Positions 20,884 through 41,796 of a stretch of DNA of 64,000 nucleotides are shown in pieces. Below the pieces are notes generated by a model. It made no database searches, was not told the origin of the DNA, and was given only the letters and a program-made list of their open reading frames with translations. Position numbers and translations under genes: made by a program. This DNA comes from Escherichia coli (GTDB taxonomy: Bacteria; Pseudomonadota; Gammaproteobacteria; Enterobacterales; Enterobacteriaceae), in the NCBI RefSeq assembly GCF_046105845.1, contig NZ_CP151004.1; one strand, given 5' to 3'. Each line of letters opens with the position of its first letter. Within the stretch, counting starts at the first letter, position 1.

Positions 20884-20900
20884 TTGCCACCTCCAGGCCT

Positions 20901-27555: not shown

Positions 27556-27580
27556 GCCTGATAAGCGTAGCGCATCAGGC
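27556..27580. repeat. REP (repetitive extragenic palindrome) unit between ybiU and ybiT
   Basis: GCCTGATAAGCGTAGCGCATCAGGC, the canonical E. coli REP palindrome. Confidence 0.7.
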
Positions 27581-36787: not shown

Positions 36788-36999
36788 ATCCATCGCTGAT
36801 GGTGCAGAACTTTAGTACCCGATAAAAGCGGCTTCCTGACAGGAGGCCGTTTTGTTTTGCAGCCCACCTCAACGCACTTATTTAGTGCATCCATCTGCTA
36901 TCTCCAGCTGATTAAGTAAATTTTTTGTATCCACATCATCACACAATCGTTACATAAAGATTGTTTTTTCATCAGGTTTTACGCTAAATAATCACTGTG

Positions 37000-37050
37000 T
37001 TGAGTGCACAATTTTAGCGCACCAGTTTGGTGCCCCAGAATGGTGCATCT
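37000..37050 (+). promoter_or_regulatory. Putative NtrC binding sites upstream of glnH
   Basis: GCACC-N5-GGTGC palindrome (GCACCAGTTTGGTGC) and adjacent GGTGCA half-site, resembling the NtrC consensus; inferred from known glnHPQ regulation. Confidence 0.5.
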
Positions 37051-37120
37051 TCAGGGTATTGCCCTATAAATCGTGCATCACGTTTTTACCGCATCTCGAT
37101 AAATCAATGAGTTGCAAAAC

Positions 37121-37136
37121 TGGCACGATTTTTTCA
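37121..37136 (+). promoter_or_regulatory. Putative sigma54 promoter (glnHp2): TGGCAC-N5-TTTCA
   Basis: TGGCACGATTTTTTCA about 55 bp upstream of the glnH start; -24 GG present, -12 element is a near match. Confidence 0.5.
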
Positions 37137-37175
37137 TATATGTGAATGTCACGCAGGGGATCGTCCCGTGGATAG

Positions 37176-37937
<762 letters not shown>

Positions 37938-37944
37938 TAACGCT

Positions 37945-38025
37945 ACGCCTGTAAGGCGCACTGGCAGTTCCCTCTCCCCTCTGGGGAGAGGATTAGGGTG
38001 AGGGGCGCAAACCCGCTCCGGGGCC
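37945..38025. repeat. GC-rich palindromic intergenic element (boxC/REP-like) between glnH and glnP
   Basis: CCTCTCCCC-TCT-GGGGAGAGG perfect 9-bp inverted repeat followed by GGGTGAGGGG; family assignment is from memory and uncertain. Confidence 0.45.
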
Positions 38026-38075
38026 ATTAATTACCCTGAATTTGATTATTTACACCACGGTAACAGGAACAACAT

Positions 38076-38735
38076 ATGCAGTTTGACTGGAGTGCCATCT
38101 GGCCTGCCATTCCGCTTCTGATTGAAGGTGCCAAAATGACCCTGTGGATTTCGGTCCTCGGTTTGGCTGGCGGTCTGGTGATCGGATTGCTGGCAGGTTT
38201 TGCACGCACCTTCGGTGGTTGGATAGCCAACCACGTCGCGCTGGTCTTTATTGAAGTGATCCGCGGCACACCTATCGTCGTCCAGGTGATGTTTATCTAT
38301 TTCGCCCTGCCGATGGCGTTTAACGACTTACGCATCGACCCGTTTACTGCGGCGGTGGTCACCATCATGATCAACTCCGGCGCGTACATTGCGGAAATCA
38401 CGCGTGGTGCGGTGCTGTCTATTCACAAAGGTTTTCGTGAAGCAGGACTGGCGCTCGGTCTTTCACGTTGGGAAACCATTCGCTACGTCATTTTACCGCT
38501 GGCACTGCGTCGTATGCTGCCGCCGCTGGGTAACCAGTGGATCATCAGCATTAAAGACACCTCGCTGTTTATTGTTATCGGCGTGGCGGAACTGACCCGT
38601 CAGGGGCAAGAAATTATTGCCGGAAACTTCCGCGCCCTTGAGATCTGGAGCGCCGTGGCGGTGTTCTATCTGATTATTACCCTGGTGCTGAGCTTTATTC
38701 TGCGTCGTCTGGAAAGAAGGATGAAAATCCTGTGA
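38076..38735 (+). CDS. glnP: Glutamine ABC transporter permease GlnP, 219 aa
   Basis: Full ORF; polytopic permease; operon context. Confidence 0.94.
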
Positions 38736-39454
38736 TTGAATTTAAAAACGTCTCCAAGCATTTTGGTCCAACCCAGGTGCTGCACAATATCGATTTGAAC
38801 ATTGCTCAGGGCGAAGTCGTGGTGATTATCGGGCCGTCCGGTTCCGGTAAATCGACCCTGCTGCGCTGCATCAACAAACTGGAAGAAATCACCTCCGGCG
38901 ATCTGATTGTCGATGGCCTGAAGGTTAACGATCCGAAAGTTGACGAGCGCCTGATTCGCCAGGAAGCGGGTATGGTGTTCCAGCAGTTTTACCTCTTCCC
39001 GCATCTGACGGCGCTGGAAAACGTCATGTTTGGTCCGCTACGTGTGCGTGGCGCGAACAAAGAAGAGGCGGAAAAACTGGCGCGTGAGCTGCTGGCGAAA
39101 GTCGGCCTGGCAGAACGCGCTCACCACTACCCTTCCGAGCTTTCTGGTGGTCAGCAACAGCGTGTGGCGATTGCCCGTGCGCTGGCGGTAAAACCGAAAA
39201 TGATGCTGTTCGATGAACCGACTTCCGCTCTTGACCCGGAACTGCGCCATGAAGTGCTGAAGGTTATGCAGGACCTGGCTGAAGAAGGGATGACGATGGT
39301 GATCGTGACCCACGAAATCGGTTTTGCCGAGAAAGTAGCTTCGCGCCTTATCTTTATCGACAAAGGCCGGATTGCGGAAGATGGCGATCCGCAGGTGTTG
39401 ATCAAGAACCCACCGAGCCAGCGCTTGCAGGAATTTTTGCAGCACGTCTCTTAA
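38732..39454 (+). CDS. glnQ: Glutamine ABC transporter ATP-binding protein GlnQ, 240 aa
   Basis: Full ORF; Walker [10 protein letters not shown] and ABC signature LSGGQQQR. Confidence 0.95.
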
Positions 39455-39463
39455 CTTCTCAGC

Positions 39464-39487
39464 CTCCCTTTCCCCCGAAAGGGAGGC
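39464..39487 (+). terminator. Stem-loop (CCTCCCTTTC/GAAAGGGAGG) 10 bp after the glnQ stop
   Basis: Perfect inverted repeat read from sequence; lacks a clear T-run. Confidence 0.45.
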
Positions 39488-39570
39488 ACACCAGATTCCT
39501 CTCATTTAAAATCGCCCCTCCCCCAGCATCTATACTTATCTTTTTGCTCTGTTTTCTCACTGGAGGAGTC

Positions 39571-41796
39571 ATGCGGTGGATCCTGTTCATCCTCTTCTGC
39601 CTGCTGGGCGCACCTGCCCAAGCGGTATCCATACCCGGCGTTACAACCACAACGACAACGGACTCAACGACTGAACCGGCCCCGGAACCGGATATCGAAC
39701 AAAAAAAAGCGGCCTATGGCGCACTGGCGGATGTGCTGGATAATGACACCTCGCGTAAAGAGTTGATCGACCAGTTGCGCACCGTCGCCGCGACGCCCCC
39801 TGCGGAACCCGTACCGAAGATCGTGCCGCCGACGCTGGTTGAAGAGCAAACCGTGCTGCAAAAAGTCACCGAAGTCAGCCGCCATTATGGTGAAGCCCTT
39901 TCCGCCCGCTTCGGACAACTTTATCGCAATATCACCGGCTCCCCGCATAAGCCGTTTAATCCACAAACCTTCAGCAATGCGTTGACCCATTTTTCAATGT
40001 TAGCGGTATTAGTGTTTGGTTTTTACTGGCTGATTCGCCTGTGCGCACTGCCGCTGTATCGCAAAATGGGCCAGTGGGCGCGGCAAAAAAATCGTGAGCG
40101 CAGTAACTGGTTGCAGCTTCCGGCGATGATTATCGGGGCGTTTATTATCGACCTGCTGTTACTGGCACTGACATTATTTGTCGGTCAGGTTTTAAGCGAC
40201 AACCTGAATGCGGGCAGTCGCACCATCGCTTTCCAACAAAGTTTGTTTCTCAGCGCCTTTGCCCTGATTGAATTTTTCAAAGCCGTACTACGCCTGATTT
40301 TTTGCCCAAACGTGGCGGAACTGCGCCCGTTCACGATTCATGACGAGAGCGCCCGTTACTGGAGTCGTCGCCTGAGCTGGTTAAGCAGCCTGATTGGCTA
40401 TGGCCTGATTGTCGCCGTGCCGATTATCTCTAATCAGGTGAATGTACAGATAGGTGCGCTGGCGAACGTCATCATTATGCTGTGCATGACCGTCTGGGCG
40501 TTGTACCTGATCTTTCGTAATAAAAAAGAGATTACCCAGCATTTGCTCAACTTCGCGGAGCATTCGCTGGCCTTTTTCAGCTTGTTTATCCGCGCCTTTG
40601 CGCTGGTGTGGCACTGGCTGGCAAGCGCCTATTTTATCGTGCTGTTTTTCTTTTCGTTGTTCGATCCGGGCAACAGCCTGAAATTTATGATGGGTGCAAC
40701 GGTGCGCAGCCTGGCGATTATTGGTATCGCAGCATTTGTTTCCGGTATGTTTTCCCGCTGGCTGGCGAAAACCATCACCCTCTCGCCACATACTCAGCGT
40801 AACTATCCCGAGCTGCAAAAACGGCTGAATGGCTGGCTGTCGGCGGCGCTGAAAACGGCGCGTATTCTGACAGTCTGCGTGGCGGTAATGTTGCTGTTGA
40901 GCGCATGGGGATTGTTCGATTTCTGGAACTGGCTGCAAAACGGCGCGGGGCAGAAAACCGTAGATATCCTGATCCGTATCGCACTCATCCTTTTCTTCTC
41001 GGCGGTTGGCTGGACGGTGCTCGCCAGTTTGATCGAAAACCGGCTGGCTTCGGATATTCATGGCCGCCCGCTACCCAGCGCCCGTACGCGTACCCTGCTG
41101 ACGCTGTTCCGTAACGCGCTGGCGGTGATTATCAGTACCATCACCATCATGATTGTGTTGTCGGAAATCGGCGTCAATATCGCGCCATTGCTGGCAGGTG
41201 CCGGGGCATTAGGTCTGGCTATCTCGTTTGGTTCGCAAACGCTGGTAAAAGATATCATTACCGGGGTGTTTATTCAGTTTGAAAACGGCATGAACACTGG
41301 AGATTTGGTGACTATCGGGCCGTTGACCGGCACTGTGGAACGGATGTCGATTCGCTCCGTGGGCGTGCGCCAGGATACCGGGGCGTATCACATCATTCCG
41401 TGGTCTTCGATTACCACCTTTGCCAACTTTGTCCGTGGCATTGGTTCGGTGGTGGCAAACTATGATGTCGGTCGCCATGAAGATGCTGATAAAGCCAATC
41501 AGGCACTGAAAGATGCGGTAGCGGAATTGATGGAAAACGAAGAAATTCGCGGGCTGATTATTGGTGAACCGAATTTTGCCGGGATTGTCGGCTTAAGCAA
41601 TACCGCGTTTACACTGCGTGTTTCGTTCACCACGCTGCCACTCAAACAGTGGACGGTACGCTTTGCCCTCGACAGCCAGGTGAAAAAACATTTCGACCTG
41701 GCGGGCGTTCGCGCGCCAGTGCAGACTTATCAGGTGCTGCCTGCTCCGGGCGCGACCCCGGCTGAACCGTTGCCGCCGGGGGAACCAACGCTTTAA
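39571..41796 (+). CDS. ybiO: MscS-family mechanosensitive channel YbiO, 741 aa
   Basis: ORF 39544..41796; start at [18 protein letters not shown] (signal peptide); multiple TM helices plus MscS-like C-terminal domain. Confidence 0.9.

Follow-up and report, generated by a model that had tools for sequence, protein, structure and literature searches.

Between glnH and glnP, inside the glnHPQ operon of Escherichia coli, lies a GC-rich palindrome, and the questions that it raises are which family of repeats it belongs to and whether it acts on the mRNA that contains it. The initial annotation had described a 9-bp inverted repeat in a 138-bp gap between the two genes, had taken it for a native intra-operon repeat of uncertain family and had given it a role in either attenuating transcription or stabilizing the mRNA, and thereby in setting the stoichiometry of binding protein to permease. 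We followed the element up in the window, by which we mean the whole 64-kb stretch of E. coli DNA that was analyzed and in which the region reads rhtA-dps-glnH-glnP-glnQ-ybiO. The explanation that we favor, with a probability of roughly 55%, is that the palindrome is a copy of the boxC repeat, that this copy is fixed in E. coli, and that it would serve as a barrier to mRNA decay in place of other hairpins found at the same position in related species.

The palindrome and its setting

The repeat search and the list of open reading frames agreed on both the inverted repeat and the gap that holds it. The arms, CCTCTCCCC and GGGGAGAGG, are 9 nt each and 100% complementary, separated by a 3-nt loop, TCT. 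The right arm is followed by ATTA and then by the G-rich sequence GGGTGAGGGG. When up to three mismatches were allowed, the hairpin pattern occurred once in the 64-kb window and never in 100 dinucleotide shuffles; the pattern formed by the second and third blocks also occurred once, with a mean of 0.08 in the shuffles. The interval first assigned to the palindrome, 37945-38025, contained the whole element, both its core and the longer stretch aligned by the profile HMM described below. The coordinates of the features are collected in Table 1, and the MG1655 counterpart of the spacer element is found at 847,120-847,257.

Table 1. Features of the glnH-glnP spacer and its neighbors, in window coordinates
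Feature	Position	Strand	Basis or remark
glnH, periplasmic glutamine-binding protein gene, upstream cistron	37191..37937	+	ORF list; same annotation in MG1655 and other E. coli genomes
glnH-glnP intercistronic spacer, 138 nt	37938..38075	+	4 positions differ from the MG1655 spacer
Full boxC-family similarity, core and weakly conserved flanks	37947..38018	+	nhmmer profile
boxC / PIT / TMECO core, type A (TTA second loop)	37970..38005	+	CCCTCTCCC-CTCTG-GGGAGAGGA-TTA-GGGTGAGGG-G
Left arm of the Watson-Crick hairpin, pyrimidine block	37971..37979	+	Invariant in five distinct alleles
Hairpin loop TCT	37980..37982	+	Variable among alleles (TCT, TAT, GCC); allele comparison
Right arm of the hairpin, purine block	37983..37991	+	Isolated RNA hairpin, -18.3 kcal/mol
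A in place of the family consensus G	37992	+	Consensus from PMC4666352
Third G-rich block, GGGTGAGGG(G), potential Hoogsteen strand of an intrastrand DNA triplex	37996..38005	+	8/9 triplets purine-motif compatible
ACCACGG (38054-38060) and AGGA ribosome-binding site (38065-38068), published target of the GlnZ sRNA, immediately 5' of the ribosome-binding site	38054..38068	+	Outside boxC
glnP, permease gene, downstream cistron	38076..38735	+	ORF list

Some smaller features were seen in the surroundings. Just 3' of the glnH stop codon, in the left flank of the element, there is a small 4-bp hairpin, CGCC-TGTAA-GGCG (37946..37958, + strand), which is polymorphic: three substitutions (37947, 37955 and 37956) abolish it in K-12. 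The scan scored this hairpin as terminator-like on the minus strand. No promoter-like site was found by scan within 36900-39700. Just past the dps-side open reading frame, at 36825-36860 (+ strand), there was a weak Rfam match to ctRNA_p42d (26.9 bits with a gathering score of 50, E=0.005), which is probably just a terminator-like hairpin.

The palindrome is almost certainly a boxC copy

BoxC repeats have been known since the 1990s. The family was later named the PIT element by Hoyne and Maher, and later still the TMECO G/C-rich triplex motif by Holder et al. (2015, PMC4666352). The TMECO consensus, also used as the search string, is CCCTCNCCC-N3-6-GGGNGAGGG-N3-GGGNGAGGG, and 23 copies were tabulated for MG1655 (PMC4666352); the published counts are 23 strict copies and 32 classical boxC copies. 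The core of the glnH-glnP element is identical at 34 of 36 positions to MG1655 copies 9, 16, 19 and 22 (CCCTCGCCCCTCTGGGGAGAGGGTTAGGGTGAGGGG; Table 1 of PMC4666352). The two differences are a T instead of a G at position 6 of block 1 and, at 37992, an A instead of a G as the last base of block 2.

A profile HMM was built from 12 of the tabulated MG1655 copies with their flanks, and the glnH-glnP copy was excluded from it. In an nhmmer search with this profile, the element was the sole significant match in the window, with 48.3 bits and E=2e-14, and the next match had E>=0.5. The left flank, gcgcactggcagtt, resembles the flank of other family members, such as gcgcacggacagtc at adk-hemH. Judged from the sequences, a convergent origin of the likeness to other boxC copies is implausible at this E value and with shared flanks. 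Homology that includes the flanks, many dispersed copies and an intergenic position wholly within the 138-nt spacer all place the element in the family, and it is almost certainly a boxC copy that has been slightly mutated.

The strict TMECO string does not match the copy, as its block 2 is GGGAGAGGA and is one specified base off (the A at 37992). No copy near 847 kb is among the 23 tabulated for MG1655 (PMC4666352), though the element is present there, and it is probably this A, which breaks the search string, that kept the copy off the 2015 list. Neither glnH nor glnP was found mentioned in the supplements of Holder 2015. All E. coli alleles seen have A at 37992, where the sister lineage Escherichia sp. 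E1V33 has G, and the E. coli copy is thus a point-mutated derivative.

Pattern searches and the profile revealed no second boxC copy in the 64-kb window; a partial match to the third block at 59513-59532 (E=1) was treated as chance. An Rfam search of 36800-39600 at a permissive threshold returned chance-level matches only, the best one over the element being whalefall-1 (E=2.2, 15 bits with a gathering score of 37). A REP/BIME identity was rejected after a motif scan of 37938-38075 gave no hit to REP motifs such as GCCKGATGCG and CTTATCMGGC. REP-like motifs are present elsewhere in the window, at 20897, 27556, 27571 and 42955 (GCCTGATAAG, CGCATCAGGC and CTTATCAGGC; the 27556-27580 stretch).

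The copy is fixed in E. coli

Searches of complete E. coli genomes put the 43-nt element at 2-30 places in each genome (median 15), which amounted to 80,358 places in 5425 of 5426 genomes, only 56 of these places being on plasmids. With the 138-nt spacer as the query, the median was 12 places per genome, again in 5425 of the 5426. A 298-nt query comprising the spacer and both gene ends matched 5421 genomes, 5400 of them over >=80% of its length, and the best match had >=95% identity in all but one of the 5421. A spacer without boxC, of the type seen in SCPM-O-B-8794 (described below), was found in none of the E. coli genomes searched. The glnH-glnP boxC copy is essentially fixed and stable in E. 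coli (about 5400/5426 at >=95%). What the initial annotation had called a native repeat is indeed native and one of many copies, here within an operon, and the family that it had left uncertain is boxC and not REP. A motif unique in the genome and absent from known repeat families, the finding that it had set against its own reading, is not what was seen: the element is multi-copy and matches the boxC profile.

Only one disrupted allele was examined, in E. coli FORC_042 (NZ_CP025318.1 3380150-3381583), where an IS26 in the 3' end of glnH alters the gene end and removes the normal spacer junction.

Five distinct alleles were compared, namely those of the window, MG1655, W224N (to which AHB12 is identical), an O157:H7 strain and Escherichia sp. 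E1V33. All 18 stem bases were invariant and the loop occurred in three versions, while the third block showed three different changes (GGGTGAAGGG, a one-G deletion and GGGTGAGGAG). The spacer was 137-138 nt long in every allele examined. This pattern fits the view that the Watson-Crick hairpin is constrained and the triplex is not, but as a statistical signal it is weak: by our own arithmetic, no change was seen in 18 stem positions when roughly 2-3 were expected, with P ~0.04-0.17. Gene conversion or chance could also explain the invariance of the stem. In the explanation that we favor, boxC came to lie between glnH and glnP earlier than the separation of E. coli from at least one of its sister lineages in Escherichia.

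Predicted RNA and DNA structures

The isolated 23-nt RNA hairpin was predicted at -18.3 kcal/mol, compared to -15.7 kcal/mol for the common "A mm" form of the family, and it is stronger because the T at position 6 of block 1 removes an internal mismatch. The hairpin that takes its place in the boxC-less lineage was of similar strength (-19.4 kcal/mol). The whole spacer folded at -54.4 kcal/mol (z=-2.4), with the boxC hairpin in both the MFE and the centroid structures. As RNA, the 43-nt element folded no better than shuffles (z=-0.31), and since composition alone gives strong folds, the folding z-scores of the core say little. Its predicted fold is an ensemble (MFE frequency 0.12), since the third block offers the C-rich block an alternative partner.

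In the common "A mm" copies, position 6 of block 1 holds a G that is mismatched with block 2 and can form a G-U pair with block 3. The canonical copy at zntA/tusA, folded as RNA, pairs block 1 with block 3 (-26.2 kcal/mol, z=-2.84), whereas the glnH-glnP copy at 37966-38008, with its T, prefers block 2. Pairing between blocks 1 and 3 may explain why the "mismatch" is the majority form (13/23 copies).

For single-stranded DNA, a hairpin of about -9.7 kcal/mol was predicted on either strand. Read as a purine-motif triplex, 8/9 triplets were compatible by sequence alone. With respect to transcription termination, the stem is present and is followed by the tail ATTAGGGTGA, which contains no T-run, and the scan found no terminator-like site on the + strand of the spacer.

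Hairpins of other kinds occupy the orthologous spacers

A GlnH scan with one genome per species gave 80 Enterobacteriaceae loci, from which the glnH-glnP spacers were extracted. At this position, boxC was found only in E. coli and in Escherichia sp. E1V33, whose glnH DNA is 94.9% identical to that of the window. SCPM-O-B-8794 (glnH 94.6%) and E. albertii (92.6%) have spacers of 94 and 96 nt, with a hairpin, GCCCGGCAG...CTGACCGGGC, in the place of boxC. The genome of SCPM-O-B-8794 is labeled E. coli (NZ_JAATUR010000020.1) and is a separate species representative in the genome collection, without boxC here; it is probably a cryptic Escherichia lineage and not E. coli proper.

The best single hairpin ranged from -13.7 to -38.4 kcal/mol over all 81 spacers, and the glnH-proximal part folded better than dinucleotide shuffles (z below -2) in 75 of them, with a mean z of -3.5. 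A crude motif classification of the 81 spacers counted 2 occupants as boxC, 39 as REP-like, 17 as a stem with a T-run and 23 as other. The third type, GGGGCG...CGCCCC and a T-run, is found in many genera, where it occupies the shortest spacers (73-90 nt). Of the 9 pairs in its consensus structure, 3 show compensatory changes, and it lies directly upstream of ACCACGG...AGGA. Taken together, the spacers show that a structured element after glnH is near-universal and that its sequence has been replaced at least twice, with boxC as the occupant in E. coli.

In the slot equivalent to 37938-38053, the conserved stem CAGGGGCG...CGCCCCTG of at least 17 further species of enterobacteria is followed by a T-run, resembles an intrinsic terminator and abuts the ACCACGG target of GlnZ. 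This suggests a real glnH-glnP attenuator in the stem-plus-T-run genera that is absent from E. coli.

The element lies upstream of the GlnZ target

The sRNA GlnZ pairs with a site immediately 5' of the glnP ribosome-binding site and thereby represses the gene (Walling 2022; PMC9731577). The target motif ACCACGG was present in 70/81 orthologous spacers. The 3' third of the spacer, 38041-38075 (TTGATTATTTACACCACGGTAACAGGAACAACAT), which comprises the GlnZ pairing site and the glnP ribosome-binding site, hardly varies from genus to genus. The Salmonella target mutation C-18G (PMC9731577) maps to 38058 in the window, about 60 nt downstream of the boxC hairpin. After a pulse of GlnZ in Salmonella, glnP and glnQ were down more than fourfold, and glnH was not among the listed genes (PMC9731577).

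Published transcript data were also consulted. Dar and Sorek 2018 reported that the binding-protein genes of five ABC transporter operons are selectively stabilized by 3' structures (PMC5927463). The glnQ-glnP-glnH operon is among the 390 operons analyzed and is absent from the tables of differential decay; operons with internal intrinsic terminators or substantial Rho termination had been excluded from this set (PMC5927463). The published supplementary text, which is possibly incomplete and therefore weak evidence on this point, yielded no 3' end, half-life or expression value for the glnH-glnP transcript. The sole relevant entry in the supplement of Adams 2021 places a start of glnH transcription at minus-strand position 848057. 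No 3'-end record for the spacer was found in the supplement of the TERMITe paper, and a literature search for glnHPQ mRNA stability or a stem-loop gave nothing specific.

A possible barrier to mRNA decay

As we picture it, the boxC element is transcribed within the glnHPQ mRNA, where blocks 1 and 2 form a 9-bp, all-Watson-Crick, G+C-rich hairpin without a U-tract. Since no U-tract follows the hairpin, its most likely effect, if any, would not be termination; it would instead block 3'-to-5' exonucleases and so preserve the glnH segment. The protection would act when the glnPQ segment is cleaved and degraded, for example once GlnZ has paired at the glnP ribosome-binding site, ~60 nt further downstream. 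BoxC would thereby stand in for the REP-like or stem-plus-T-run hairpin of other Enterobacteriaceae.

That the boxC hairpin is a 3'-exonuclease barrier protecting glnH mRNA is a tentative proposal, drawn from the anatomy of the spacer, the comparative data and the analogy with REP and malEFG, and an influence on mRNA decay or on the GlnH:GlnPQ ratio may follow from it. Of the two roles first considered for the palindrome, that of a stabilizer is plausible, given that 75/81 spacers fold significantly better than shuffles and that at least three unrelated hairpin types occur, and that of an attenuator is unlikely, given the missing T-run and the lack of a + strand terminator. A more specific version would hold that the position after glnH is a selected hairpin site filled by three unrelated elements (stem-plus-T-run, REP-like and boxC), and that boxC was co-opted there as a decay barrier that lets GlnZ shut down glnPQ while glnH mRNA is spared. 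We consider this version unlikely; if it were true, the barrier would be the first function assigned to any boxC/triplex-motif copy.

A quite possible alternative is that the copy is a neutral passenger, the relic of a selfish or recombination-spread repeat in a tolerant site, with no measurable effect on glnHPQ, and that the recurring hairpins are simply palindromic repeats. No function has been demonstrated for the boxC family (PMC4666352), whose copies adjoin unrelated genes in every gene orientation, and the glnH-glnP copy is already decaying, as seen from the A at 37992 and the changes in the third block of other alleles. The glnHPQ operon was also not flagged as differentially decaying (PMC5927463). 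Part of the recurring-hairpin pattern could arise without selection, because the species are related and so are not independent samples and because repeats are palindromic, and the long spacers may be structured simply since repeats insert where they are tolerated. However, the shortest spacers (73-90 nt) of many genera keep a hairpin that is not a repeat and that shows compensatory changes, which points to selection on the structure and argues against a purely passive explanation. Two further observations sit poorly with a passenger: variation among the alleles affects the loop and the third block but never the stem, and no deletion allele was seen, the copy being fixed in about 5400 genomes.

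The hairpin could also be an intra-operon attenuator, a partial intrinsic terminator that cuts read-through into glnPQ. A strong GC hairpin between the gene for a highly needed binding protein and the permease genes would suit this role, and at least 17 other species have an equivalent hairpin followed by a T-run that resembles a true intrinsic terminator. In E. coli, however, the stem is followed by ATTAGGGTGAGGGG and not by a T-run, and the + strand terminator scan was empty in the spacer. PIT elements were found in earlier work of the Maher laboratory to have neither promoter nor terminator activity and no effect on RNA polymerase (summarized in PMC4666352), and glnQ-glnP-glnH was retained after the exclusion of internally terminated operons (PMC5927463). 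We therefore regard attenuation by the E. coli element as very improbable.

Equally improbable is an action at the DNA level as proposed for the family, in which the single-stranded G-rich strand folds into an intrastrand purine-motif triplex that stalls polymerase and makes the site a rearrangement hotspot. In its favor, this copy keeps 8/9 base triplets, triplex formation by oligonucleotides of the family occurs in vitro, and TMECO loci are reported to be more variable between strains (PMC4666352). Against it, this locus is very stable (5400/5426 at >=95%, with a spacer of 137-138 nt in every allele examined), and the sole disrupted example that was examined is an IS26 that lies within glnH and not near the element. 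Changes gather in the third block, and in vivo footprinting by Holder did not detect a stable triplex (PMC4666352).

The boxC family was known before, and K-12 carries this same copy. What is mildly new is that the copy escapes the 2015 catalog by one base, that the locus is stable, and that hairpin types have replaced one another beside the GlnZ target. Catalogs of triplex motifs that are based on a strict pattern miss degenerate copies such as this one. At this locus, the stability of the copy is at odds with the proposal that triplex motifs destabilize their surroundings. The replacement of hairpin types beside a validated sRNA target offers a simple test case for an RNA-level function of a boxC copy. 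On its own, the glnH-glnP copy matters little, and it is ordinary apart from filling a slot in which relatives carry other hairpins.

Comparison with known systems

The element shares with the boxC/PIT/TMECO family its three blocks (pyrimidine, complementary purine and second purine), as well as the type-A TTA loop, a similar left flank and an intergenic, multi-copy nature. It differs from the family in having a T and not the common G at position 6 of block 1, which results in a perfect Watson-Crick stem between blocks 1 and 2. It also lies within an operon, like the pstA-pstB copy, whereas 7/12 of the MG1655 copies that were fetched lie between convergent genes. The pstA-pstB spacer of MG1655 holds a canonical boxC copy in an ABC-transporter operon, on the strand opposite to the genes and at positions 306-340 of the interval NC_000913.3 3908190-3908830.

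The REP stabilizers, of which malE-malF is the classic case (cited in PMC5927463), are alike in their position just after the binding-protein gene of an ABC operon and in forming a stable GC hairpin that no U-tract follows. REP-like hairpins stand in the place of boxC in the orthologous spacers of E. albertii, Citrobacter, Salmonella, Enterobacter and others. In contrast to malEFG, the glnH-glnP spacer has no REP consensus, and differential decay is documented for malEFG and not for glnHPQ. A further parallel is the decay of iscRSUA under RyhB, which Desnoyers et al. are said to have described in 2009 as an sRNA-driven differential decay in which an intergenic structure protects the upstream cistron. 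The likeness of glnHPQ to it is one of analogy only, and it extends to three points: the second cistron is targeted by GlnZ at its ribosome-binding site, the genes listed as falling include glnP and glnQ but not glnH, and a strong hairpin lies between the cistrons.
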